Shown here: positions 1,916 through 60,797 of the stretch, one piece after another | Numbering within the stretch: position 1 is the first letter of the stretch | Layout of the letters: the number at the start of each line of letters is the position of its first letter | Source: Candidatus Omnitrophota bacterium | GTDB taxonomy: Bacteria > Omnitrophota > Gorgyraeia > B26-G9 | Direction of reading: 5' to 3' | Length of the DNA: 64,000 nt | Assembly (NCBI GenBank): GCA_018813905.1 | Contig: JAHJAO010000031.1 | Coordinates: 5,922 to 69,921, forward strand | Program-made: the position numbers and the translations under genes | Notes under the pieces: model-generated | Database searches by the model: none | What the model saw: only the letters and a program-made list of their open reading frames with translations | Told to the model about the DNA's origin: nothing

Positions 1916-2242
1916 ATGAAATCGCGCGGAAGGCCTAAAAAGTATAGAATAGTCAGAATTGACCCCATGATCAGCCAATTTAGTCCCAGAGGTAGGCCCG
2001 GAAGACCGGATGAAGTAGTTTTAGGGGTAGATGAGTTTGAGGCTATCAGACTAGCTGATTTTATGGGCACAAGCCAAAAAGAGGTAGCTAAATCCATGCA
2101 TGTATCCCAGCAAACCGTTAGCCGGATCCTGAAGAGGGCGCAAAAAACCGTGGCTGATGCTATAGTTAACGGCAAGATCATTAGAATCCAAGGCGGTTAC
2201 TATGCTATCAGCGCTCACGAACAAAATGAAAAAATTGGATAG
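1916..2242 (+). CDS. DUF134/UPF0251 family predicted DNA-binding protein (sigma-70 region-4-like HTH)
   Basis: The N-terminal RGRPKK...PRGRP motif and the HTH 'QKEVAKSMHVSQQTVSRILKRA' are typical of the DUF134 family. Confidence 0.7.
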   Translation: MKSRGRPKKYRIVRIDPMISQFSPRGRPGRPDEVVLGVDEFEAIRLADFMGTSQKEVAKSMHVSQQTVSRILKRAQKTVADAIVNGKIIRIQGGYYAISAHEQNEKIG

Positions 2243-3047
2243 TTTAACTAAAGATGAATTAATCAGTCTATATATAAATGATAGAAAGTCCTTGGATGAT
2301 ATCGCTAAGATTTATGATGTTTCTCGGGCTGCTGTTTACAAGAGACCGAGAAAATATAACATAAAACAGCGCTCTAAATCGGAGGCAAGAATTGAAGCAC
2401 AAAAACAAGGTAAATTACCACAGGGATTCTTTGATATAAACGAGAACTTCTTTAACAGCTGGTCCTCTGAAATGGCATATGTATTAGGTTTAATTATTAC
2501 GGATGGCTGTGTATCTAAAGCCGGAGTAATTTCTTTATGTATTAATGATAAAGAATTGCTTGAAAAGGTTAAGAAAACTATGAATTCTGAACATCAAATT
2601 AAGCCATCAAAACACCAAAAAAATCTATATTACTTTCATTTTGCCAGGGATAGGATAACCAAAGATTTAGAAAAATTAGGCGTTGTGCCCAGAAAAAGTC
2701 TTACGGTTAAATTTCCTGATATTCCGCAAGAATATCTGTCTGATTTCATAAGAGGCGTTTTTGATGGTGATGGCAGCGTTTTCTTTGATAAGCGTAGACC
2801 AAACTTTCCATTAAGGTCAAAATTCGTGAGCGGTTCAGAGGATTTTATAGAAGGTTTACATGTAAGTCTTAAGCTTTTAGGTATGCCTGAAAGGACGGTA
2901 TATAAGCAAAAAACCAAGAATGGCTGGAACTATATGTTTATATATGACCATAAAGACAGCATAAAATTATTCGGGATTTTATATAAAAATATCCAAAACG
3001 GATTATTTTTAGAACGTAAATATAAGCGTTTTTTAGAAGGTTTTTAA
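2226..3047 (+). CDS. Free-standing double-motif LAGLIDADG homing endonuclease with N-terminal HTH domain
   Basis: Two LAGLIDADG motifs: AYVLGLIITDGCV and IRGVFDGDGSV. An N-terminal HTH is present (DIAKIYDVSRAAVYKR). The start is chosen at the internal Met to minimise overlap with the upstream gene. Confidence 0.8.
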   Translation: MKKLDSLTKDELISLYINDRKSLDDIAKIYDVSRAAVYKRPRKYNIKQRSKSEARIEAQKQGKLPQGFFDINENFFNSWSSEMAYVLGLIITDGCVSKAGVISLCINDKELLEKVKKTMNSEHQIKPSKHQKNLYYFHFARDRITKDLEKLGVVPRKSLTVKFPDIPQEYLSDFIRGVFDGDGSVFFDKRRPNFPLRSKFVSGSEDFIEGLHVSLKLLGMPERTVYKQKTKNGWNYMFIYDHKDSIKLFGILYKNIQNGLFLERKYKRFLEGF

Positions 3048-11488: not shown

Positions 11489-11782
11489 TCAAGAATTTTT
11501 AAAGCGGGAATTTTTTTGGGCGGTGTTTTGTTTAAACCAGCTTTTGATTTTCGCGACGATTCGTGTGTCATTGGTGAAAGAATATCCGGGCACGGACGAA
11601 TTCTTATGCTCGACTACGATATTGTGCCGGCAGAGATTTTTTAACGCTTTTTTTACTGCGTCCAGCTTTAGGCCGGTCCACACGGAAATATTTTTGTACG
11701 TATCCAGGCATTGCGGATTTTCGTAAAAGAAACGGATGACTCTAAAATTAGAATTTGAGCTTAAAATCTTTTCCAGATCCAT
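11489..11782 (-). CDS. Putative small winged-helix DNA-binding protein
   Basis: wHTH-like segment TGLKLDAVKKALKNLCRHNIV. The ORF overlaps the 3' end of the upstream gene by 22 nt. Confidence 0.35.
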   Translation of the reverse strand: MDLEKILSSNSNFRVIRFFYENPQCLDTYKNISVWTGLKLDAVKKALKNLCRHNIVVEHKNSSVPGYSFTNDTRIVAKIKSWFKQNTAQKNSRFKNS

Positions 11783-13266
11783 GAATTCTTTTCACCTTTG
11801 AAAATTCTATTTTTAAAACGTTTGATTGCCCGGACAAAAGCATCGACAACGACCGGGTCAAATTGCTCGCCGCTGTATTTTACTATTTCGGAGACCGCCT
11901 GGTGTAAAGACATCTTTCTGCGGTAAGGCCGGATAGACAACATCGCTTCGAACGCGTCGGCCACGGTGAGGATTTTCGCTCCCAGCGGAATGGCGTCGCC
12001 TTTTAAGCCGCTGGGATAGCCTTTGCCGTCATAGCGTTCGTGGTGATGGATGATAATCGGCAGCACCGATTTTAAGCGGCCGCCGATAGGCTGGATAATC
12101 TGTGCGCCTTTTAAATGCTGTTCTTTGATTATCTGGTAATCTTTCCCGGTAAGTTTCGTCGGTTTTTTTAAAATCTTTTCCGGCAGGCCCATTTGGCTTA
12201 TGTTATGCAGAATGGCGGCGTAATAAAGTACACGCATTTCGTCGGATGAGAGTTTTAATTCCATGCCGATAGACATGGCCAGGTTGATGAAGAGATTGGT
12301 GCGGCCGAAATTTTCCGCCGCGCCCGAGCTTAAAATCGAAGCTAAGGCTTTAATCGTGTTCAGGGTTAGCTTTTCCTGCTCGTCGTAAAGCTGGGCGTTT
12401 TTAATGGCGATTACCGCCTGTTCGGATAACGTGGTTAAAATCTCCCGGTCGAAAATATTAAACGGCTGCTCTTTTTCTGTTTTGGAAATAAAGATAACGC
12501 CGATAATGTTTTCTTCGGATACCAGCGGTACGCACATCAGCCGCAGCCGCGTGACAATTATGCCGCTTTTGACTACTTCGCCCATTATCCCCTGCCCGGG
12601 TTTTATCGGATGAGGTTTGATATGTTTCCCGGAGAGATTTACGCAGGCGTGAGGTATGAGTGTTTTTTTCTGTTTGTCCAGCAGCATAATTTGGCAGTGT
12701 TGGGCGCGCAGTACCTGCAGGGTAAGCCGGGCAATGCGCGGCAGAAGCTCGTCTATTTCCAAGGTAGAACTGATGATCCGGCTGATAGTATGTACGGTGG
12801 AAAGCGCGATTGTTTTTGGCCGGATGGTTTCGGATAATTTAAACAGCTCCAACTCTTTCTGGGTGGATTCTATTACCGTGCAGGTAAAGGAATTGAACAG
12901 TTCCAAAAGGGGTAGCGGGATTTCATTTTTTAAACGGCTTACGCAAGTGTAGCCGTAAATCTGATGCCCGCGGATTATGGGTATCAGATAGAGCCAGGTT
13001 TTGTCCGCGCATAAAAATTTTTGCGGCAGGCGGGTTTTGGCCACCCGGTATAAAATTTTATTTATAATATTTTCGTATAATCTCGCCGCATCCCGGTTTT
13101 TCGCGATGGCGTGCTTTTTGTAGTCGAAATAATTCTGTTCTGTATTGGGAAAAATAAACCAGCGGGTATCTTTTCCCAGTAATTTGGAAAAAGCGCGCAG
13201 TTCGCTTATCCAGCTTTCCTGTTCGCTGAGTTTTTGAAATAATTCTTTTTGATAGGCGTTTTTCAT
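11761..13266 (-). CDS. HD-GYP domain c-di-GMP phosphodiesterase with GAF domain
   Basis: An HD motif (AILHNISQ) is present, as is HHHERYDGKGYP (the HD-GYP signature). A GAF-like middle region precedes them. Confidence 0.85.
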   Translation of the reverse strand: MKNAYQKELFQKLSEQESWISELRAFSKLLGKDTRWFIFPNTEQNYFDYKKHAIAKNRDAARLYENIINKILYRVAKTRLPQKFLCADKTWLYLIPIIRGHQIYGYTCVSRLKNEIPLPLLELFNSFTCTVIESTQKELELFKLSETIRPKTIALSTVHTISRIISSTLEIDELLPRIARLTLQVLRAQHCQIMLLDKQKKTLIPHACVNLSGKHIKPHPIKPGQGIMGEVVKSGIIVTRLRLMCVPLVSEENIIGVIFISKTEKEQPFNIFDREILTTLSEQAVIAIKNAQLYDEQEKLTLNTIKALASILSSGAAENFGRTNLFINLAMSIGMELKLSSDEMRVLYYAAILHNISQMGLPEKILKKPTKLTGKDYQIIKEQHLKGAQIIQPIGGRLKSVLPIIIHHHERYDGKGYPSGLKGDAIPLGAKILTVADAFEAMLSIRPYRRKMSLHQAVSEIVKYSGEQFDPVVVDAFVRAIKRFKNRIFKGEKNSWIWKRF

Positions 13267-13286: not shown

Positions 13287-13664
13287 TTAAGTAGAATGCT
13301 GCTGGATCAGATCGTAGAGCGCTTTTTTATCCTCTTCCCTGTCCCACCAGGAAAATTTAACGCCTAAATCGTAATCATTTTCCTTGTTTTTCTTAATCCA
13401 GGCAACGCGGCCAAATGTTTTGATGGGGCCCTGTTCCGGGGTGATTCTTATATCTAAGCCCAACGGAGCTTTTATGGCTAAATCCTGGTCGCTGCGGAAA
13501 GAAATGCCGCCCATGCTGATGTTTTGGATGGATTCCAAAGTGCGGTCTAGGTAGTTTGACCAGGCGCGCAGGTCGTAAATTTTAAAACCTACTTTTAATC
13601 CGGGCACATTTACCCTTTTGAACTGTCTTTTGTCTTCCTGGGAACTCTGGTTATCCTTATTCAT
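13287..13664 (-). CDS. PilZ domain c-di-GMP-binding protein
   Basis: RxxxR motif (RQFKR) and (D/N)xSxxG motif (NISMGG). Confidence 0.7.
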   Translation of the reverse strand: MNKDNQSSQEDKRQFKRVNVPGLKVGFKIYDLRAWSNYLDRTLESIQNISMGGISFRSDQDLAIKAPLGLDIRITPEQGPIKTFGRVAWIKKNKENDYDLGVKFSWWDREEDKKALYDLIQQHST

Positions 13665-16680: not shown

Positions 16681-17163
16681 TTAGAAAAAATTCTTTACCA
16701 AATAGGAAAGAGCTGAAATCACGATAATAATTAACACAAGTACTACTATGGGGTTGGAAAAAAGTTTTTTAAAAAGCTGTCCGAACGCGCTAACTTTTCC
16801 CAGTTCAGTTCTTTGGTTTTCCAAAGAGCCGAGAACTTTGTTCAGGGCGATATAAGAATTGTGCCAATCGCTATTCAATTTATCAAACTGCAAAGGTGAA
16901 AACTTATTAATGCTTTGCAGGTTCATGACTTGCGAGATGACTTCAAACGTTCTGTCTTCAGCGGTAGTTTTAATCTTTAAAGCGTCCATAAGCGCCTGGT
17001 ATTTACGGGCCAAAATGCTTTTGAGCTCTAGAAAGTTTGTTTCTTCCTGTTCGGTAAAACTTTGCTGCTTGCTTGCCCGGTTATATAAGGCTTGAAAATC
17101 GCCCCAGAGCTTAATGAAATCGCTAAGCTGTTTAATTTTATTTTCTAAATTGCGGTTTATCAT
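16681..17163 (-). CDS. Hypothetical protein with C-terminal transmembrane anchor
   Basis: Helical N-terminal region with a C-terminal hydrophobic stretch VVLVLIIIVISALSYLV. Confidence 0.4.
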   Translation of the reverse strand: MINRNLENKIKQLSDFIKLWGDFQALYNRASKQQSFTEQEETNFLELKSILARKYQALMDALKIKTTAEDRTFEVISQVMNLQSINKFSPLQFDKLNSDWHNSYIALNKVLGSLENQRTELGKVSAFGQLFKKLFSNPIVVLVLIIIVISALSYLVKNFF

Positions 17164-17224: not shown

Positions 17225-18619
17225 TCAAGTTAAAATCTGATCAAGTTCCGGGCAATAATCTATCGCAGTTTGGCGGGAAATTAATTTACCGTAATATAAT
17301 CTTTTGAAACTTTCCGCGATTGTGTGCATTTTATACCGGGCACCGGTTTGAATGGCTGAAGGTATCTGGATGGTTTGTCCTTCCCGGATGTGATTGCGAA
17401 TCGCGTCGGTCATAATCATTACTTCAGTCGCGATGATTCTTGTCTCCCGATCCTGTTTTGGTACAAGAAGTTGGGTAACTATCCCCTGTAAGCTGTTGGC
17501 CAGCTGTACACAGGTCTGATGCCGTTGTTGCGGCGGAAAAATGCTTATTAACCGGTCAATGGCCTGGACCGTATCCGGAGCGTGCAAAGATGTGAGTACC
17601 AAATGCCCGGTTTCCGCGGCCGTGATAACCGTACGCACTGTTTCGGCGTCCAACAACTCTCCGACGAGGATCACGTCCGGGTCCTGTCGAAGTGCCCGCT
17701 TGAGAGCTACGGAAAAAGATAAGGTGTCTGTTCCGATTTCCCGTTGCTTGATAATTGAACTTATGTTTTTATGTATATATTCTATCGGGTCTTCCAGGCA
17801 GATAATTACCGCTTCCCGCTTTCTGTTTATTACATCGACCATCGCGGCCAGCGTTGTTGTCTTACCACATCCGGTAGGCCCGGCGATGACCACAATCCCC
17901 TTCTTTTTAAGGGCAAGTTCTTCGACCACGCTGGGCAGCCCCAGTTCATGAATTGTTTTTAAGTCCGGCATGATTACGCGAAAAGTCGCTTCCACATTAC
18001 CGCGTTGGACATGAATATTAGCGCGGAATCTTAAGTCCGGATTGGGTGAGAAAGCGAAATCCAGCTCCTTGAACTTTTCAAACCGGCTAATTTGCTCATC
18101 ACTCAAGATACTGTAGATCATATTTTTCAGTTCCCAAGTGCCTAAAACTTCCATCTCCAGCGGAACCAATCTTCCCTGGAGCCGCAGGACCGGCGGCCGA
18201 CCGTAGGTAAGATGCAAGTCTGAAGCTTTTCTTTGCGCGGTAATCTGCAAAAGCCGCAAGATATCCATAAGCTCAATACGCTTAATAATCGATTCTTTAT
18301 TAGCGCCTTTGATTTCCTCAAAGTTCATGCCGATGGCGTACATTTTATTTTTCAGCTCTTCCACTCTTACGACCCGGCTTATTACTTCGATGGGATCTTC
18401 GATTTTAGGCAGGCGGAACGTCAGCTTGATTTTTGTGTTTAAAGCGAAAGGTTTTTCATGTTCAATTTGCATGCCGGTAGTGCTGATGTCTTTGGCCACG
18501 GTTTCTATTGGGCTACCGCCTTTGCCTTCTTGGGAAATTTCTTCGAATTTTATTTTTAAACGCGACCGGATCCGGGTGCTTGAGCGCATATCCGCAAAGA
18601 TATCAAAATCTTCGTTCAT
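17225..18619 (-). CDS. PilT-family type IV pilus retraction ATPase with N-terminal PilZ domain (PilZ-PilT fusion)
   Basis: The N-terminus carries PilZ motifs RSSTR (RxxxR) and DISTTG (DxSxxG). The core has Walker A GPTGCGKTT, plus an Asp box and His box typical of PilT. Confidence 0.85.
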   Translation of the reverse strand: MNEDFDIFADMRSSTRIRSRLKIKFEEISQEGKGGSPIETVAKDISTTGMQIEHEKPFALNTKIKLTFRLPKIEDPIEVISRVVRVEELKNKMYAIGMNFEEIKGANKESIIKRIELMDILRLLQITAQRKASDLHLTYGRPPVLRLQGRLVPLEMEVLGTWELKNMIYSILSDEQISRFEKFKELDFAFSPNPDLRFRANIHVQRGNVEATFRVIMPDLKTIHELGLPSVVEELALKKKGIVVIAGPTGCGKTTTLAAMVDVINRKREAVIICLEDPIEYIHKNISSIIKQREIGTDTLSFSVALKRALRQDPDVILVGELLDAETVRTVITAAETGHLVLTSLHAPDTVQAIDRLISIFPPQQRHQTCVQLANSLQGIVTQLLVPKQDRETRIIATEVMIMTDAIRNHIREGQTIQIPSAIQTGARYKMHTIAESFKRLYYGKLISRQTAIDYCPELDQILT

Positions 18620-18641
18620 AATTAAAACTCCTTTGCCTTTT

Positions 18642-40508: not shown

Positions 40509-41075
40509 TCATTTAAATAAAATAGCCAAATTTAAACGCACTGATATATTCGGCCGCTTATTTACGGCAATGCTGAGCAGCTCGGGCATTACCGGCAGTT
40601 CTTTTATCTTTTCAAAAAAAAGGTAAAGGTTTTCAAAGCGCGTGTTGATATCGATTTCTAAAACCATGGTGCCATAAGCTTCTTTGATTTTAAATTCTTT
40701 AGGGCCTAAAGATTTTATTTCGAAATCGGCTTCGTTTGCCAGATGCGTGATTTTCTCCAGCATAAACGAAAAGTTCTCTTTGCTGGGTAGTTTAGCTTCC
40801 GCTTCGGTGATTTTGGCTAAATAGGAGTTTTTTTTGTATTCAATTTTTCTTAAGATCTCACCGATGTTCCTGTCGCCGGGGTATTCGATGGTCTGGATGA
40901 TTTCGATTTTACTGTTTAAATCTTTTAGCTCCTCAAGAAGCGCTTCAGCTTTTTGGGCATGAGATTTGTAAATATAATCGTAATAAAAATTAAAAAACAG
41001 CGCGATAATTCCGACTACGCCTAAAAGCTTATATTTTTTATCAATAGGCGGAAGTTTTATTTTAGGCAGTTCCAT
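40509..41075 (-). CDS. PilO-like type IV pilus biogenesis protein
   Basis: Single N-terminal TM helix plus a coiled-coil. The gene lies directly downstream of pilMN. Confidence 0.55.
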   Translation of the reverse strand: MELPKIKLPPIDKKYKLLGVVGIIALFFNFYYDYIYKSHAQKAEALLEELKDLNSKIEIIQTIEYPGDRNIGEILRKIEYKKNSYLAKITEAEAKLPSKENFSFMLEKITHLANEADFEIKSLGPKEFKIKEAYGTMVLEIDINTRFENLYLFFEKIKELPVMPELLSIAVNKRPNISVRLNLAILFK

Positions 41076-41080
41076 ATAGT

Positions 41081-42679
41081 TTACCTTTTAGAAATTGTAA
41101 TTTTAAAATAGATATTCGCTTCTCCGGCGTCTATTTTTTCTTCCGCGGTTCCGAGAGTGACATTTTTAAAATGCGGGAGCGTTTCCAGTTTTCGCACGAA
41201 TTCTATAGCCAGGATATTAGTTTTAGCCGCGCCGTTTAAGATCAGCGTTTTGTCGTTTTCGTTCAAACTAAAGTTATTCAACCAGACCCCCTCCGGGATG
41301 CTTTCGGTTATGCCTTTTAAAATTTTCAGCCATGATTCCTTGGTATCCTGGATGCTTTTTAAGAAATCCAGTTTTTTGAAGAGTTGCTGTTCGCTTTCCC
41401 AAAGTGTAATCAATTCCTGCTTTTCGCGTTTTTCTTTTGTCAGTTTTTTTTCTAAGTTTATTACCCGCGTGTACAGGAGGAACAGTGTCGCGATAAGCAA
41501 AACCGGGATAATTTTAATAAGCAGAATTTTAAATTGGCGTTTGGTGTCTTTTTTAAATTCGGCCGGCAGAAGATTCGGGCGCTTTGCGTCGCCGCTGGTT
41601 AATGCCGCGCCGATTGCCGCCGCGAAAAAAGCCATAAATTCTTCAAAATTAACAAAAGCAGTCTGGTCAAATAATAATCCGTTGAACGGATTGGCGGTTT
41701 CGGTAAAAATTCCCAATTCCTCGCTGACGAATTTTTCTAAATTTATGAGCCGGGAACCGCCGCCGTAAAACACCATCCGGTCGATTCTATCAATATGGAA
41801 TTGACCTTTATAATAACCGATAGACCGGCTTATCTCCGAGGTCATTTGTTTTAAACTCGCGGCAATCGTTGCGTAATATACCGCGTTATCGCTTAAGCCG
41901 TATTTGATTTTTGCCTGTTCCGCTTCCTCAAAACTAATCCCCGATTCTTTGGCTATTATTTCGGTAATTGTGTCCCCGCCAAAGAATATCTCGCGGGTAA
42001 AACGCAGTACGTTATTGTTGAATATATTTATTTTGGTCGTTTTGGCGCCGATATCAATCAGGGCAATAGTATCTTCTTCTTTCCAGAGATTGGATTTCTG
42101 AAAAACATTCCAGAGGCAGAACGGTTCCATGGTTATTTCTTTTATGTTTAACCGGTTGCGGGCGTAAAAATGCATGGATTCCTTTATTTCTTCGGTCTTA
42201 GCGCTGATCACCTCCAGCTCCACATTTTTAGCGCCGGCGCGGATTATTTCGCCGCAAACCAGAAAATCAATAGTGGCTTCTTCTATCGGATAACTGATAT
42301 TTTGCTCCATCTCCCACTTCACCGATTCTTTAAGTTCGTTGTCCGGCATTAACGGCAGAGACAGGTTTTTAATGTTTAATGAAGGAGTCTTAATTATCGC
42401 GCACACGTTGTTTGATGCGCTTGTTTTTAATTGAGTATAGGCGTTTTTTAATGCGGCATTAATATTTTTTTGCAAGGTGCCGGCTGCTTCATCTCCCTCT
42501 TGTTTTTGGACCTCGGCGATACCGATACTTAAAAGCCGAGTGCCGATCGGCGCCTCTTTTAAAACGACCACCTTGATAAATCTGGTACCGACATCAATGC
42601 CCACAAGCTTTGCTCCGGGCTCAAAGATGTTGATTTCTTTATCTAATTTGCTGGTGATCTGTTTTATTTTAATATTCAT
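41081..42679 (-). CDS. PilM-PilN fusion protein (actin-like ATPase domain fused to PilN membrane domain)
   Basis: PilM-type N-terminus LVGIDVGTRFIKVVVL, the internal TM segment ILLIKIIPVLLIATLFLLY, and a PilN-like C-terminus. Confidence 0.8.
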   Translation of the reverse strand: MNIKIKQITSKLDKEINIFEPGAKLVGIDVGTRFIKVVVLKEAPIGTRLLSIGIAEVQKQEGDEAAGTLQKNINAALKNAYTQLKTSASNNVCAIIKTPSLNIKNLSLPLMPDNELKESVKWEMEQNISYPIEEATIDFLVCGEIIRAGAKNVELEVISAKTEEIKESMHFYARNRLNIKEITMEPFCLWNVFQKSNLWKEEDTIALIDIGAKTTKINIFNNNVLRFTREIFFGGDTITEIIAKESGISFEEAEQAKIKYGLSDNAVYYATIAASLKQMTSEISRSIGYYKGQFHIDRIDRMVFYGGGSRLINLEKFVSEELGIFTETANPFNGLLFDQTAFVNFEEFMAFFAAAIGAALTSGDAKRPNLLPAEFKKDTKRQFKILLIKIIPVLLIATLFLLYTRVINLEKKLTKEKREKQELITLWESEQQLFKKLDFLKSIQDTKESWLKILKGITESIPEGVWLNNFSLNENDKTLILNGAAKTNILAIEFVRKLETLPHFKNVTLGTAEEKIDAGEANIYFKITISKR

Positions 42680-46246: not shown

Positions 46247-47851
46247 ATGGAATTCGCACAGCTTATTACCCGAATGTTTAAACTTCGCGCCTCCACCGTG
46301 CATATTGCCGCGGGCATATCTCCCCTGTTTAATATCCACGGGCGCCTGGTGAAAAGCGATATCGCCCCTTTCGATAGCGGAACAATAAAACAGCTCTCTT
46401 CGGCTTTGATGAATAAAGAGCTTCTGGACAGATTTAAAAAAAATAACGCCGTAAATTTTATCTGCCAATATGAAAATATCGGCAGATTCCGGGTGAGTTT
46501 TTTTCGGCAACGGGGAGATATTTCCGGCGTTATAAAAAGTATGCCGGAATCTATTCCTTCGTTTGAAGAATTGAACCTGCCGCAGATTATAAAAGATAAA
46601 GTTCTTCGGCTGCGCAGCGGCTTAGTCGTCATTACCGGCCCTTCCGGATGCGGCAAGTCCACGACCCTTGCGGTTATCCTCAATCTTATCAACACGCAGC
46701 GGCCCTGCCACATTGTAACCCTGGAAGACCCGATCGAGTATTTCTTTGAGCACAAAATGGCTTTAATATCCCAGCGTGAAATCGGGTTGGATACGCATAG
46801 TTACCCAAAGGCGATTCGCGAAGCTACGCGCCAGGATGCGGATATTATCATGATCGGCGAGATGAGGGATATGGAAACCATTGATGTGGCAATGAGTGCG
46901 GCGGAATCCGGCTGCCTGGTTTTGGCGACGATGCCGACCGCGGATAGTGTGCAGACAATCTATCGCATTGTTACTTCTTTCCCCTCGGAAAAACAGCAGC
47001 AGGTCTATGTGCAAATGGCGGAAACTTTACAAATGGTAATATCGCAACAGCTGGTTATGCATAGTGACGGCAAATCCCGCGTGCCGGCGGTGGAAGTAAT
47101 GGTAGTTAGCGAAGCGGTAAGAAACCTGATTCGGAACCGCAACATACACCAGATACCTTCCGCGATAGAAAGCGGCAATACTTCCGGCATGCAGTCGCTT
47201 GATCAGGCCTTGCACGCGCTTTATGAAAAACATATGATTTCTGAACTCGAAGTCATAACCAAGTCCGTTACGCCCGTACAAGCCACAAGACACATAAGCC
47301 GGGTGTCTATCCCCCCACCCGAAAATATTTCCGGACCAGGGTTTTTGGATGTGGGCGAAGAGATAATGCCTATTGATAAAAAGATGATAAAATATAAAGC
47401 TAACTTAACCACGGGCCAGGAGGGGTATTGGACGTCATCTTTGCCGGTGGTGTTTAATAATGAAGGTATGGTTTTGTCGGTTGCTCCGGGATTACATGTC
47501 GAACGCATCTATGTTTCCGATTTTAATATTGTCGGAAAAAAAACGGTTTCGTTTGAACTGGCCAGAAAACTGCTTTTAAGATTCAAGCTGGAATTGGACG
47601 AAAGCGATGCGCTAAAAAATGTGGACGAGCTTTGTTGTCTAGAGGTAAAGATATTTACCCAGCCGGAGACAGCTCAAGCGGCGAGTTATAATAAAATAAA
47701 TCTTAAATTCCCCTTACAATTAAATGAAAAATGGCATACTTGGGTTATTAATATTCCCCAACAAGCTCAGGGCAAAATGTTGAAAATCAGCATGTTCGAG
47801 TTCCCGAACTTCTTGACAAGGGTTTTGATAAGCGATATCATATTTTTCTAA
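46247..47851 (+). CDS. PilT/PilU-family ATPase with ~190-aa C-terminal extension of unknown function
   Basis: Walker A GPSGCGKSTT plus an Asp box and His box in the first ~345 aa. The remaining C-terminus has no recognised motifs. Confidence 0.8.
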   Translation: MEFAQLITRMFKLRASTVHIAAGISPLFNIHGRLVKSDIAPFDSGTIKQLSSALMNKELLDRFKKNNAVNFICQYENIGRFRVSFFRQRGDISGVIKSMPESIPSFEELNLPQIIKDKVLRLRSGLVVITGPSGCGKSTTLAVILNLINTQRPCHIVTLEDPIEYFFEHKMALISQREIGLDTHSYPKAIREATRQDADIIMIGEMRDMETIDVAMSAAESGCLVLATMPTADSVQTIYRIVTSFPSEKQQQVYVQMAETLQMVISQQLVMHSDGKSRVPAVEVMVVSEAVRNLIRNRNIHQIPSAIESGNTSGMQSLDQALHALYEKHMISELEVITKSVTPVQATRHISRVSIPPPENISGPGFLDVGEEIMPIDKKMIKYKANLTTGQEGYWTSSLPVVFNNEGMVLSVAPGLHVERIYVSDFNIVGKKTVSFELARKLLLRFKLELDESDALKNVDELCCLEVKIFTQPETAQAASYNKINLKFPLQLNEKWHTWVINIPQQAQGKMLKISMFEFPNFLTRVLISDIIFF

Positions 47852-47861
47852 GAGGACGCTT

Positions 47862-48935
47862 ATGAATATTTTTGAGTTTATCGATCAAATAATCGAACAG
47901 AAAGCCTCGGATTTGCATATCGTTGCCGGAGCACCGCCGGCGATACGCGTTAACGGTCAGCTTGTTTTTTTCGAGCAAAGTAAGCTGACGCCCGATGAGG
48001 CAAAAACTCTCTGCTACGAACTGTTGAGCGATGAACGTAAAGTAAAGTTTGAAAAAGATAAAGAGCTCGATTTCTCCTATTCTTATAACAGCAAGAGTAA
48101 GAATTTATTCTGCCGGTTTCGCGTGAACCTCTATTGGCAGCGCGGCAGCGCGGCGATGGCGCTGCGGTTTATTGCCAATGAGATATTGGCCTTTACCAGT
48201 CTGAACCTGCCTCCTATACTCAAAGATATTTCCCGCCTGCGCCGGGGATTGGTTTTGGTTACGGGCGCAACCGGTAGCGGCAAATCTACGACTTTAGCTT
48301 CCATGGTCGATTTGATAAATAAAGAACGCAGCTGTCACGTTATTACCCTGGAAGACCCGATAGAATATTTTCATACGCACCAGAAATCACTTGTTTCACA
48401 GCGGGAAATCGGAGAAGATACCGCATCCTTTTCCTTGGCTTTGAGAGAAGCGGTAAGGCAGGATCCGGATGTTATCCTCGTTGGCGAAATGCGGGATTTG
48501 GAAACGATAAGTATCGCGATTACGGCCGCGGAAACCGGGCATCTGGTTCTGGCTACGCTCCATACCACCGATGCGGTACAAACCATAGACCGCATTATCG
48601 ATGTTTTTCCTCCCCACCAGCAGCAGCAGGTGCGTACGCAGATTTCCATAACCCTGCAGGCGGTAGTCGCCCAGCAGCTGGTGATGTGCGGTGACGGGAA
48701 GACGCGGGTGCCGGTTGTGGAAATAATGGTGGTTAATCCGGCGATAAGAAACCTTATCCGCGAGGGAAAAACTTACCAGATATATTCGGTTATTGAAACC
48801 GGACGCGACCAGGGCATGCAGACGCTGGATCAGGCCTTACAGGATTTGATTTCCAGAAAACTTATTACTTATAATGAGGCGTTTGGCGTGACGCGTGACC
48901 CGGAAAATTTGAGAAAGAAACTCGAAAACAGCTGA
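47862..48935 (+). CDS. pilT: Type IV pilus twitching motility ATPase PilT
   Basis: Canonical PilT of 357 aa with Walker A GATGSGKSTT and AIRNLIREGK. Confidence 0.9.
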   Translation: MNIFEFIDQIIEQKASDLHIVAGAPPAIRVNGQLVFFEQSKLTPDEAKTLCYELLSDERKVKFEKDKELDFSYSYNSKSKNLFCRFRVNLYWQRGSAAMALRFIANEILAFTSLNLPPILKDISRLRRGLVLVTGATGSGKSTTLASMVDLINKERSCHVITLEDPIEYFHTHQKSLVSQREIGEDTASFSLALREAVRQDPDVILVGEMRDLETISIAITAAETGHLVLATLHTTDAVQTIDRIIDVFPPHQQQQVRTQISITLQAVVAQQLVMCGDGKTRVPVVEIMVVNPAIRNLIREGKTYQIYSVIETGRDQGMQTLDQALQDLISRKLITYNEAFGVTRDPENLRKKLENS

Positions 48936-57060: not shown

Positions 57061-57996
57061 TCAGGTATTCCGCCGGCTGTCACGGACAAAATTACTACCC
57101 GTAACTGATTTGGCTAATTTTTTAAGTTCCGCGCCGATTTCACCGATTTCGGCCGCGTGAGAAATCGTGCGGTATTCGTTAGTGACAATACCAATAGATA
57201 CGGAAATTAGAAATATTTGGGCGATATTGCCCTGCCGGTCTTTGGCCGCAATGAAGCCACGTTCCCGGTCTTCTTTGTTATAAAATGATGGGGCTATTTT
57301 ATCAAAGTCGGAGATAATGTGTTTGCAAATCGTTTCTGACTTTTCCGGGGTAGTCAGACAAACAAAATCATCACCGCCGATATGTCCGACAAAATCGTCC
57401 TTATTACCCTTTTCCATCACCGTGCTCAGGATAATTCGCGCTGATTCGCGGATAACCTCGTCTCCGTGCTCAAAGCCGTAAGTATCGTTGTAGGACTTGA
57501 ATTTATCCAGGTCAATATAGCAAATTGCAAAGGGTTTTCCGCTTTTTATCGCGGCTTCGAATTCGCTCATTATTGTTACATTGCCGGGCAGACGGCTTAA
57601 AGGATTCGCGTCCAAATCGCGGGTGCTTCTGCGAACAATCATATTGATACGGGCGACCAATTCCTGAGGGTCAAACGGTTTGACCACATAATCGTCAGCT
57701 CCGGCGTTTATACCCATGACTTTATCCTGGGTTTCGCCTTTGCCGGTGAGCATGATAACCGGCATGTGCCGAAGCAGGATGTCTTTTTTTAGTATTTGGC
57801 ATACCTCCAACCCGTTCATGCGAGGCATTTTGTAATCTAAAATCACAATATCGGGCGAGGTTTTATGCACTTTTTCCAAGCCGTCTACGCCATCTGTGGC
57901 TTCATAGACTTCAAAACCTTCGCCTTCTAAAGTTATTTTCAAAACATCACGGATATCGGGTTCATCATCGATTATTAGAATTTTTAGTTTTCTCAT
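57061..57996 (-). CDS. Response regulator receiver domain fused to GGDEF-type domain (motif GGDDF)
   Basis: REC: ILIIDDEPDIR...VILDYKMP...VIMLTGKG. GGDEF domain: YIDLDKFKSYNDTYGFEHGDEVI...GHIGGDDFVCL. Confidence 0.8.
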   Translation of the reverse strand: MRKLKILIIDDEPDIRDVLKITLEGEGFEVYEATDGVDGLEKVHKTSPDIVILDYKMPRMNGLEVCQILKKDILLRHMPVIMLTGKGETQDKVMGINAGADDYVVKPFDPQELVARINMIVRRSTRDLDANPLSRLPGNVTIMSEFEAAIKSGKPFAICYIDLDKFKSYNDTYGFEHGDEVIRESARIILSTVMEKGNKDDFVGHIGGDDFVCLTTPEKSETICKHIISDFDKIAPSFYNKEDRERGFIAAKDRQGNIAQIFLISVSIGIVTNEYRTISHAAEIGEIGAELKKLAKSVTGSNFVRDSRRNT

Positions 57997-58025
57997 AAAA
58001 AAATAATTGCTCCTTATCAGTGCCT

Positions 58026-59606
58026 TTAAGCTACGGTGACGTTGGAATCTTCGATCTGCTGCGTAGACAAAGTGAAATGAAAAGCGGTGCCTTTGCCTAC
58101 TTCGCTGGTGACCCAGATTCGACCTTTATGGGCCTCGACAATTTTTTTGACCAAAGACAGGCCAAGACCGGTTCCTTTCTTTTCCACATTAATAACATTG
58201 TCGACCCGGAAGAATTCGTCAAAGATCCGGTTCACGTCTTCCGGGGTTATGCCAATACCTGTATCCGCGACTTCGATATTTATAAAATCACTGCCCGGAA
58301 TTACCTTGATGGTTATTTTGCCTTTTTCCGGAGTGAATTTTAGCGCGTTACCGATTAAATTGATGAAGACGCGTGAAATCTGGCTTGAGTCCATCCAGAC
58401 CATGACCGGTTCTTTTGGGGTATCCAGTTCCAGCTTGATTTTTCTTTCGTCCGTTTGCGGGAAAAACAAATCGGCAATACTTTCGACAATTTCCGTAAGA
58501 GATGAATGCTTAATCTTCATACCGATTTTTCCCGATTCTATGCGCGCGATATCCAACAGGTCATTGACCAATTTTATGAGTTCGTCACTGTGCACGTTAA
58601 TTTTTGTTAATTTTTCTTTTTGTACATTGGTGACATCGCCAAGTCTCCCCGCGCTCAAAATCGAAGCATACCCTTTTATTGAAGTCAGCGGTGTCCTTAA
58701 CTCGTGGGAAACGGCGGATACGAAATCGGATTTCATCTTATTGAGTTTAACCAGCTGAATATTAGCTTCCGCCAGTTCTTTAGTGCGTTCTTTAACCCGG
58801 ACTTCCAGGATATCGTGAGAGTGCTTGAGTTCTTCGTAGAGCCTGGCGTTTTCAATGGCAACGCCTAACTGATTGGAAAGGACGAATAAAGAATCAATAT
58901 CTCCCTCAGATATTGTGTTATAAGGATTGCTGTTGCCGACAAAAATATACCCCTCGACCTTTTCTTTGATGACCATGGGCACAACGACGAAGGAATTTAC
59001 GTGAAAAAGATTAAGCCATTCAACCTGTTCTTGAGTAGCGCTTTCAAAATTTTTTACCCAGATGGAACTGCCCATGTGAAAAACGGTTTTTAAAAATTCG
59101 CCGGATATTTTTTTGTTCCGGATATTTTCCAGCTCATCCGGCTTGAAACCTATCGCGGCTTTAGCGGCGGTAACGTCTTTATCCCGATCCGTTAAAACAA
59201 TCATCGCTTTTTCAAATCCGAGTTTCAAAATTAAAGGTTCGGTGATTTGGGCAAAGAGTTTCTCCGCATCCAATGTGGAGTTGATTAGCTTGCCTAATTC
59301 GTGCAAGGTATATAAACCGTTAACCTTTTTGTCCAGCTCTTCCTGCGTGCGGTTAAGTTCTAAGTCTGTCCGGATAATAATCTTGGCCTGATCGTCAAGT
59401 TCGTTATAAGCATTTCTTAATTTATCCAACGCCCGCTGCATCTTCCCAATTTGTTCGCTTTTTTCTCTTGTTAATTCGGCAAGATACGCTAGCAGTACAA
59501 GCAGGATAAAACCGCCCATTAACTTGGCGACCATATTGTCGACAATGACCACCACGCTTAAGACCACGGCTCCGATTATTAATATTAACCAGATATTGAT
59601 TTTCAT
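58026..59606 (-). CDS. Sensor histidine kinase with GAF domain (2 N-terminal TM helices, coiled-coil, GAF, HisKA, HATPase_c)
   Basis: H-box SHELRTPLTSIKGY. N box IGNALKFT. G boxes DTGIGI and GTGLGLS. Confidence 0.85.
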   Translation of the reverse strand: MKINIWLILIIGAVVLSVVVIVDNMVAKLMGGFILLVLLAYLAELTREKSEQIGKMQRALDKLRNAYNELDDQAKIIIRTDLELNRTQEELDKKVNGLYTLHELGKLINSTLDAEKLFAQITEPLILKLGFEKAMIVLTDRDKDVTAAKAAIGFKPDELENIRNKKISGEFLKTVFHMGSSIWVKNFESATQEQVEWLNLFHVNSFVVVPMVIKEKVEGYIFVGNSNPYNTISEGDIDSLFVLSNQLGVAIENARLYEELKHSHDILEVRVKERTKELAEANIQLVKLNKMKSDFVSAVSHELRTPLTSIKGYASILSAGRLGDVTNVQKEKLTKINVHSDELIKLVNDLLDIARIESGKIGMKIKHSSLTEIVESIADLFFPQTDERKIKLELDTPKEPVMVWMDSSQISRVFINLIGNALKFTPEKGKITIKVIPGSDFINIEVADTGIGITPEDVNRIFDEFFRVDNVINVEKKGTGLGLSLVKKIVEAHKGRIWVTSEVGKGTAFHFTLSTQQIEDSNVTVA

Positions 59607-60797
59607 CTATTCTCCCAAGGCGCAAACGACAATGGTTTCGTTATGGAAAAAAGTCTGTCCTAAATGCACCGCTGCGCCCAGTGGCGCCTGTTCGCCGTAT
59701 GTGTAAAACCCGATAATCGGCGTGTTTTCGCCAAAGATACTTTTAACGATTTCTATTTCCCGGTATGCGGCCCGGCCAAATAATCTTTGCCTGGCTACGG
59801 AGTCAAAAATAAAAACGAGTTTTGGCTTAGCTCGGTAAAGCCCTTCCCGCGCCATTTCGGCCGCTTTCTTTGCGGCTTTCAGAGCGGTCTCTTTAGAGCC
59901 CATCATCACATGAATTTCAGAACCCTTTGGAATTTCTCCGGCGCAGATCAAGGCTCCTTCATTATCCACGCGCAATGCGTTTCTAATGATACATTCTTCC
60001 TCTTCGGGGATAGACATGCCCAAAGGATACATGATCGACATCCGGGCCATTGGTTCATGCTGTAAATCGCTTACCCGTTTGCCGAAATAGTCTTCGTAGA
60101 TGCGTACTGCCGGTTTACCGTCAAGCTTTTTTAAGATGTTGTGCTCAACGTCGGTAACGATCCGCGGTTTGCCTAAAGGGTACCAGCCGTGCCGGGCACC
60201 GATGCCTACGCTTATATCGCCTGAGATTAAAATCCCGGGTACAGTATCCTCGTAAATTTCATTATTAAAGAACTGATAAGTTTTTTGAAAAAGAAAATCA
60301 TCTGCTGCTGAGCCGCCGACGATGGGAAAGCTTGTCCCCAAAATCTCCTGAATCCCGCGGATTATTTCTACCACGTTGCCTTTTAAGCCGTCGGGAAACA
60401 TCATGAAGGCGTGCCGGATAGACGACGATCTGGTTTTGGCAACTGTGTCTTTAGCGATAAACTGTCCCGCTTGCCGCGGCAACGCGCTAATGTTTTTGCC
60501 TAGAGATAACCCGATCTGCAAAGAATTGGATTTTAAAACTAAAATCGTAACCGATTTTTTATCCGGCCCCGCGCTTGTGATCTCTCCAGCTGTTGTGCAG
60601 CCGACTATTGGGGCGGTCGGGACGGTGCTTTTTATGCCGCGGATAAGTTCTTTATGGTCAAACCGCGCCGATGCAAAACAAAAAACTATATCCGGGTCTT
60701 GTTTGCCCATCTTTTCCAGCGCCGCATGTGCCGCCAAAGCCCCGGCGCCGAATGAATCAATTTCCTTACTTGTTCCTACCCCGACAAAGAGTGCCAT
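59607..60797 (-). CDS. FIST domain sensory protein
   Basis: FIST_N/FIST_C-like architecture: ...DIVFCFASARFD...IVGCTTAGEI... with C-terminal GFYTYGEQAP. The gene abuts the kinase gene. Confidence 0.7.
   Translation of the reverse strand: MALFVGVGTSKEIDSFGAGALAAHAALEKMGKQDPDIVFCFASARFDHKELIRGIKSTVPTAPIVGCTTAGEITSAGPDKKSVTILVLKSNSLQIGLSLGKNISALPRQAGQFIAKDTVAKTRSSSIRHAFMMFPDGLKGNVVEIIRGIQEILGTSFPIVGGSAADDFLFQKTYQFFNNEIYEDTVPGILISGDISVGIGARHGWYPLGKPRIVTDVEHNILKKLDGKPAVRIYEDYFGKRVSDLQHEPMARMSIMYPLGMSIPEEEECIIRNALRVDNEGALICAGEIPKGSEIHVMMGSKETALKAAKKAAEMAREGLYRAKPKLVFIFDSVARQRLFGRAAYREIEIVKSIFGENTPIIGFYTYGEQAPLGAAVHLGQTFFHNETIVVCALGE

Follow-up and report, generated by a model that had tools for sequence, protein, structure and literature searches.

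A PilZ domain fused to a PilT-type retraction ATPase in Omnitrophota: a candidate c-di-GMP-responsive pilus motor

Can a pilus retraction motor carry its own receptor for the second messenger cyclic di-guanosine monophosphate (c-di-GMP), and in which direction would such a receptor act on it? The question is raised by a gene at positions 17225..18619 of a 64,000-nucleotide stretch of Candidatus Omnitrophota DNA (contig JAHJAO010000031.1; the whole stretch is referred to below as the window), which an initial annotation, made from the sequence letters, had described as a PilT retraction ATPase with an N-terminal PilZ domain. Our analysis confirms this description: the gene is a single uninterrupted open reading frame of 464 amino acids (aa), it lies on the minus strand (the annotation had given none), and it encodes a PilZ and a T2SSE domain, the PilZ profile and the pilT_fam model both scoring above their curated cut-offs. 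We consider it rather probable that the product is an accessory retraction ATPase of the PilT type that responds to c-di-GMP through the fused PilZ domain, with a brake as the preferred direction of the response.

The PilZ domain covers residues 12-113 (18281..18586; all features of the fusion gene are on its minus strand), as delimited by Pfam, with further evidence from the barrel predicted with AlphaFold2 (AF2) and from Foldseek. Searched with PF07238, the profile to which the initial annotation had pointed, the N-terminus passes the curated threshold (E=1.4e-10, 41.8 bits versus a gathering score of 22.5, with positions 3-98 of the 102-position profile covered). The two signature motifs read there earlier are both present, namely RxxxR as R12-S-S-T-R16 (RSSTR, residues 12-16; 18572..18586) and [D/N]hSxxG as D44-I-S-T-T-G49 (DISTTG, residues 44-49, h being Ile; 18473..18490), and together they correspond to RxxxR plus the refined definition of the second motif for c-di-GMP binding (bioRxiv 10.1101/814665). 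In an alignment of 24 full-length homologues (51-83% identity), R12, R16 and G49 never vary, conservation reaches at least 90% at I45 and S46, and D or N occupies position 44. When the window protein is compared with 37 divergent full-length representatives of 50%-identity clusters, RxxxR is kept in 34 of the 38 sequences and [D/N]x[S/T]xxG in 30. We note that the motif pair alone is not rare, since the same regular expression also matched a spurious open reading frame; it is thus the profile statistics that carry weight.

The structural prediction points in the same direction. The AF2 model of residues 1-129 (mean predicted local distance difference test score, pLDDT, of 80; predicted template modelling score, pTM, of 0.70) shows a predicted six-stranded barrel with pLDDT values of about 80-94 (strands 17-28, 38-45, 49-54, 63-68, 77-88 and 94-104) followed by a long C-terminal helix (108-128). 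The N-terminal tail bearing RxxxR is disordered in the model, which is typical of apo PilZ domains. A Foldseek search of the PDB places solved c-di-GMP receptors of the PilZ type first, several with the ligand bound, at E values from 2e-5 to 1e-3: MotI/DgrA (5vx6, the best match), Alg44 (4rt0), PA4608, MrkH, BcsA, PlzA, YcgR and PP4397. Comparison with the closest orthologue for which DNA is available (83% identity) gave ratios of nonsynonymous to synonymous substitution rates (dN/dS) of about 0.17 for the PilZ part and about 0.05 for the motor part by the LWL85 method, which is usable for this closest pair only and is near-saturated even there, dS being saturated for all orthologue pairs by Nei-Gojobori. 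As judged from these values, the PilZ region is evolving faster than the motor, yet clearly under purifying selection. Motifs, conservation and predicted fold make the domain look ligand-competent.

The remainder of the protein is a PilT core, consisting of the N-terminal domain and the ATPase domain, at residues 120-457 (17249..18262), which scores 405.2 bits against TIGR01420 (pilT_fam; cut-off 319.1, profile positions 2-339 of 343); the DotB, TraJ, GspE and PilB models all fall far below their cut-offs. The initial annotation had read a complete core here, and every element that it named is in place: the Walker A motif GPTGCGKTT (residues 247-255; 17855..17881, from sequence and alignment), the Asp box LEDPIEY (275-281; 17777..17797, with E276 and E280 invariant) and the His box GHLVLTSLHA (338-347; 17579..17608, both His present). 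In addition, we find the atypical Walker B with the catalytic Glu, DPDVILVGE (313-321; 17657..17683, E321 invariant), and the PilT-type C-terminal motif AIRNHIRE (406-413; 17381..17404), which differs by one substitution from the AIRNLIRE of the canonical paralog in the window and agrees with the family consensus A(V/I)RNxIRE. The AIRNLIRE motif reportedly distinguishes PilT from PilU, a distinction ascribed to Aukema et al. in 2005. R199 and R214 are presumably the two arginine fingers of the N-domain. The fusion protein has the set of universally conserved residues of PilT-like ATPases listed in PMC5424180, and by its residues the motor looks catalytically competent and PilT-like.

Its closest solved relatives in sequence are indeed PilTs, from Geobacter (5zfq, 6ojx), P. 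aeruginosa (3jvu) and Aquifex (2ewv), and for the core, solved PilT outscores PilU (312 versus 231 bits). None of the solved PilT chains found in a PDB sequence search covers residues 1-110, and a canonical PilT of 357 aa is encoded elsewhere in the window, so that the architecture was rightly called not that of the canonical PilT. In the alignment, Met118 corresponds to Met1 of the unfused PilT paralogs, the PilZ part being an extra 117 residues. At the junction (residues 108-129; 18233..18298), where the C-terminal helix of PilZ meets helix 1 of PilT, AF2 predicts one helix (108-128) in the domain model and two helices in the full model (108-117 and 120-129, interrupted at 118-119). The lack of a long flexible linker in these models suggests mechanical coupling between the two domains.

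The ATG at 18619 is the earliest start codon following the upstream in-frame stop. It is preceded at 8 nucleotides (nt) by the Shine-Dalgarno sequence AAGGAG (18628..18633, minus strand, read from the sequence), a strong site compared with the weak GAG that is all that stands ahead of Met118, and residues upstream of RxxxR are conserved among orthologues. A start upstream of the PilZ domain, on which the earlier reading depended, is therefore well supported. An identical fusion gene with the same neighbours is present in the Candidatus Omnitrophica metagenome-assembled genome (MAG) GCA_018824825.1 (contig JAHJFN010000064.1) and in the independent Logan assembly SRR2544004, and because the gene is identical in two independent assemblies, the fusion is not an assembly artefact. 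Between the ATG and the stop codon of dnaE, which encodes the 1146-aa DNA polymerase III alpha subunit, lies a 22-nt spacer (18620-18641) without a terminator-like site, and given such a spacer the fusion gene may be co-transcribed with guaA-dnaE. In orthologous loci the spacer measures from 14 to 467 nt.

The fusion is not confined to the window. All close homologues in a set of 5.8 billion proteins carry both PilZ and T2SSE, their names being only 'PilT/PilU family type 4a pilus ATPase' or 'twitching motility protein PilT'. When a junction-spanning profile was run against 1.84 billion representatives at 50% identity, about 55-60 clusters among the best 150 matches extended from the PilZ start into the PilT N-domain. 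In GTDB contigs, with one genome per species, the fusion was found in MAGs labelled Omnitrophota, Zixibacteria, Deltaproteobacteria, Pseudomonadota, Gammaproteobacteria, unclassified bacteria and, in one case, Methanosarcinales, and a further cluster member is labelled Patescibacteria; such MAG lineage labels may be imprecise. Among the family members found, none came from a cultured organism, all belonging to uncultured lineages.

Seven of the 38 sequences (P0144, P0147, P0154, P0160, P0188, P0211 and P0165) have lost one or more of Walker A, the catalytic Glu and the His box. Both PilZ motifs survive in six of them, and members of this kind may, as judged from their residues, be pseudo-ATPase receptors. 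A rough neighbour-joining tree of PilT cores does not settle whether the fusion had a single origin: unfused PilTs nest among the fusion clades, the unfused P0248 grouping with Zixibacteria fusions, and we claim no monophyly. We also observed that many proteins of 690-800 aa (P0035, P0036, P0052-P0120) look, by length and scores, like tandem PilT-PilT fusions; they come from MAGs labelled Myxococcota, Deltaproteobacteria and Bradymonadia, and one from Chondromyces apiculatus.

In the mechanism that we propose, the fusion would be an accessory type IVa pilus (T4aP) retraction ATPase of the PilT type, with a PilZ domain of the c-di-GMP-binding type attached through a continuous helix, and each hexamer would carry six PilZ sensors. 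The ligand would bind the RxxxR tail and the barrel, and binding would shift motor activity, or engagement with the pilus platform, via the rigid helical junction. Pilus retraction would thereby be coupled directly to the c-di-GMP level, and it is from sequence, predicted fold and conservation that we infer such direct second-messenger control. As to direction, we prefer inhibition, a choice made by analogy and held weakly: at high c-di-GMP the fusion would serve as a brake on, or a competitor of, canonical PilT, and pili would stay extended for attachment. YcgR and MotI are examples of PilZ proteins that brake motors. This background favours a brake, as do the general promotion of extension by c-di-GMP via MshE/PilB and the persistence of PilZ motifs in the members with degenerate ATPases, which indicates that the conserved activity can be non-catalytic.

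The genomic surroundings of the fusion gene include further elements that could belong to c-di-GMP signalling. In Omnitrophota, the gene is part of a conserved block formed by guaA, dnaE, PilZ-PilT, a 160-aa membrane-anchored protein, HU, hisS, a dGTPase (missing in some loci), a stand-alone PilZ and a GAF/HD-GYP-type protein; in other lineages the housekeeping neighbours are different. The stand-alone PilZ (13287..13664, minus strand; 125 aa, Pfam PilZ E=3e-10) has both motifs, which are kept in 7 orthologues, and its gene is syntenic with the fusion. It is always adjoined by the HD-GYP-type gene, which is likewise syntenic with PilZ-PilT. The product of the latter (GAF and HD_5 domains; 11761..13266, minus strand) has an intact HHExxDGxGYP, and HN replaces the HD dyad; of the seven orthologues (in loci L001-L006 and L021), six have HN at the dyad and the one in L006 has HH. 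This protein is conserved and, from its residues, probably catalytically altered. At 57061-60797 (minus strand), an operon encodes a FIST-domain protein, a GAF histidine kinase and a REC-GGDEF regulator, a candidate diguanylate cyclase (57061..57996, minus strand) with the active-site variant GGDDF instead of GG(D/E)EF and without an RxxD I-site. A c-di-GMP toolkit is thus present in the window, the catalytic competence of its enzymes being uncertain from their active-site residues. An Rfam scan of the window returned two tRNAs only, and no c-di-GMP riboswitch.

The window also encodes T4aP genes and two further PilTs, 22-30 kb from the fusion, in agreement with the earlier count of three PilT paralogs. 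The canonical PilT (47862-48935, plus strand; 357 aa) is 47% identical to the fusion core and scores 476 bits against TIGR01420. Directly upstream of it, the third paralog (46247-47851, plus strand; 534 aa) is also above the PilT/PilU cut-off; it has a degenerate His box, GCLVLATMPT, in which neither His remains, and its C-terminal extension of about 190 aa has no Pfam or NCBIfam match. Both paralogs adjoin minor-pilin, PilM-PilN and PilO genes. The T4aP alignment genes are located at 40509..42679 (minus strand) and comprise a PilM-PilN fusion (41081-42679) and PilO (40509-41075); we note that PilM and PilN here form a single 532-aa protein, followed by PilO. No PilB homologue was detected in the window. 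In two loci from unclassified MAGs, L009 (702-3616) and L007 (185-1960), an MshEN-PilB is encoded within about 6 kb of PilZ-PilT, a distance within which L009 also has a canonical PilT. The extension and retraction ATPases of one locus may thus, by their domain content, both carry c-di-GMP receptor domains.

Several points weigh against a c-di-GMP-responsive accessory retraction ATPase. First, the fusion gene sits in a housekeeping block, guaA-dnaE-X-HU-hisS, outside pilus operons. Second, the catalytic Glu is followed by LLD (GELLD), compared with MRD in both other paralogs and (M/L/I)RD as the usual form. An inactive enzyme was considered on this ground and not adopted, as the Arg is absent from the universal list in PMC5424180 and some family members keep it. 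Third, the inter-domain geometry of the full-length AF2 model is uncertain (pTM 0.56). Fourth, RxxxR is located at a free N-terminus and not in an inter-domain linker, so that the domain-closure mechanism of YcgR-type proteins is not simply transferable. Lastly, with GGDDF in the REC-GGDEF regulator and HN for HD in the HD-GYP-type protein, c-di-GMP turnover is not proven from the window.

The serious rival to a brake is activation or recruitment, in which c-di-GMP would activate the motor or bring it to the pilus base and the fusion would drive retraction specifically at high c-di-GMP, for instance in order to pull the cell onto a surface or a host after attachment. We regard this as a realistic possibility. 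Since the window protein keeps every catalytic residue, it appears built to hydrolyse ATP; BcsA, which is among the fold matches, is relieved of autoinhibition by PilZ-bound c-di-GMP; and T4aP have been proposed to serve in host attachment in Omnitrophota (PMC10066038). The members with degenerate ATPase motifs that keep their PilZ motifs, however, fit a blocking role more easily.

The PilZ domain could alternatively be an adaptor that works independently of a ligand and tethers the motor to partners, like the eponymous PilZ of Pseudomonas and Xanthomonas. PilZ proteins that lack c-di-GMP binding do exist; XC_2249 can dispense with its c-di-GMP binding both in regulating motility and in contacting PilT/PilU (PMC3749722); and a GAF/HD-GYP-type and a PilZ protein are encoded in synteny with the fusion. 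Non-binding PilZ domains, however, characteristically lose RxxxR and/or [D/N]hSxxG (10.1101/814665), whereas both are conserved across the fusion family, which makes an adaptor improbable.

We likewise think it unlikely that the protein is a PilT-like ATPase of another secretion or uptake system, or a purely regulatory ring, placed under PilZ input. The scores above the PilT/PilU cut-off and far below those of DotB, TraJ and GspE, the PilT-type AIRNxIRE and the bona fide PilTs among its best solved relatives all argue for a pilus motor, in spite of the replaced Arg after the catalytic Glu and of the family members with degenerate ATPase motifs. The absence of the fusion gene from any pilus operon in the loci examined could also be taken to indicate another machine; genes for pilT are, however, often unlinked from pil operons, and in L007 and L009 the fusion is near pilB-pilT. 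Finally, a mis-assembly joining two genes, or a true start at Met118 that would yield a normal PilT behind an untranslated upstream region, is very hard to credit and was rejected: although an internal start is formally possible, Met118 being nearly invariant and aligned exactly with Met1 of unfused PilTs, two independent assemblies contain the identical gene, clusters with the fusion number at least about 55 at 50% identity, the strong Shine-Dalgarno sequence belongs to Met1, and the upstream region has a significant Pfam match, a confident predicted fold and a signature of purifying selection.

Two other features of the window complete the description. Directly downstream of the fusion (in the window at 16681..17163, minus strand), every Omnitrophota locus examined encodes a 160-aa protein, at 46-64% identity, whose C-terminus holds a transmembrane segment and which matches no family; it is a possible membrane partner of the fusion. 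A sigma-70-like near-consensus site (11/12 matches) is found at 17228-17200. Elsewhere, an open reading frame at 2202-3047 (plus strand) contains two LAGLIDADG_3 domains and is homing endonuclease-like; Rfam shows no rRNA or intron nearby.

The PilZ-PilT fusion is conserved yet apparently undescribed. The architecture is visible in precomputed Pfam annotations, and is thus not hidden from databases, only unremarked: every database name that we saw for fusion proteins ignores the sensor domain, which amounts to an annotation gap. A search of 8 million full texts found no paper describing a PilZ-PilT fusion, a survey of PilZ architectures (10.1101/814665) mentions no ATPase or PilT fusion, and the main Omnitrophota genomics paper (PMC10066038) covers type IVa pili without discussing PilT, PilZ or c-di-GMP. 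Direct c-di-GMP input to type IV pilus motors is known so far for extension ATPases, through MshEN, and indirect input through adaptors such as FimX, PilZ and XC_2249. For retraction ATPases, the accepted view is that they do not bind c-di-GMP, and V. cholerae PilT is listed accordingly in a 2023 review (PMC10333796). A conserved covalent link between PilZ and PilT constitutes Rosetta-stone evidence that signalling from PilZ to PilT is real and ancient, and the fusion would offer a one-polypeptide system for studying the effect of a second messenger on the conformational cycle of the PilT hexamer. With T4aP proposed for host-cell attachment in Omnitrophota, the fusion could belong to an attach-and-pull decision. 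In a more speculative extension, which we put forward with considerable reserve, PilZ-PilTs would be widespread, unrecognised c-di-GMP-gated brake subunits whose ligand-bound form occupies or poisons the PilT site at the pilus base; they would have turned into pure pseudo-ATPase receptors in some lineages, and with MshEN-PilB they would form a two-sided switch on the extension and retraction motors.

Among known systems, the MshE/PilB extension ATPases (V. cholerae MshE, PDB 5HTL) are likewise type IV pilus motors with an N-terminally fused c-di-GMP receptor (PMC5013675, PMC4624772). In their case, however, the receptor is the helical MshEN and not a PilZ beta-barrel, and the motor drives extension and not retraction. 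MshEN (PF05157) is not among the 25 best of the 36 families listed for the fusion protein (E up to 1), which moreover has no RLGxxL motif; by sequence, it is analogous to the MshEN-type ATPases and not a member of that group. In FimX-PilZ-PilB of Xanthomonas and Pseudomonas, a c-di-GMP signal also reaches a pilus ATPase via a PilZ-family protein (PMC8389850, PMC5595344), but this PilZ is degenerate and non-binding, separate proteins are involved, and the ATPase reached is PilB, the extension motor.

XC_2249 of Xanthomonas campestris is a PilZ protein that physically binds PilT/PilU in an HD-GYP::GGDEF::PilZ complex (PMC3749722), and it provides a precedent for PilZ proteins acting on PilT. The window similarly holds HD-GYP-type, GGDEF and stand-alone PilZ genes, and the HD-GYP/PilZ arrangement near the fusion recalls this complex and its targeting of PilT/PilU. 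XC_2249 nevertheless acts in trans and is reported to do so independently of c-di-GMP binding, whereas the PilZ domain of the fusion is covalent and keeps its motifs. Canonical PilT from P. aeruginosa, A. aeolicus and Geobacter (3jvv, 2ewv, 5zfq, 6ojx) matches residues 118-457, with all catalytic motifs and AIRNxIRE; in comparison, the fusion has the 117-residue N-terminal PilZ, LLD after the Glu and a canonical PilT that coexists with it. Lastly, in the flagellar brake or clutch formed by YcgR and MotI (DgrA), a c-di-GMP-binding PilZ acts directly on a motility motor, and MotI is the best structural match of the fusion's PilZ domain. YcgR and MotI are separate two-domain proteins (PilZN or PilZ-like plus PilZ, with RxxxR in the inter-domain linker) that act on the flagellar stator or rotor, whereas the fusion has a single PilZ on a pilus ATPase; judging from this architecture, it may work in a brake-like manner but is not a YcgR/MotI-type member.

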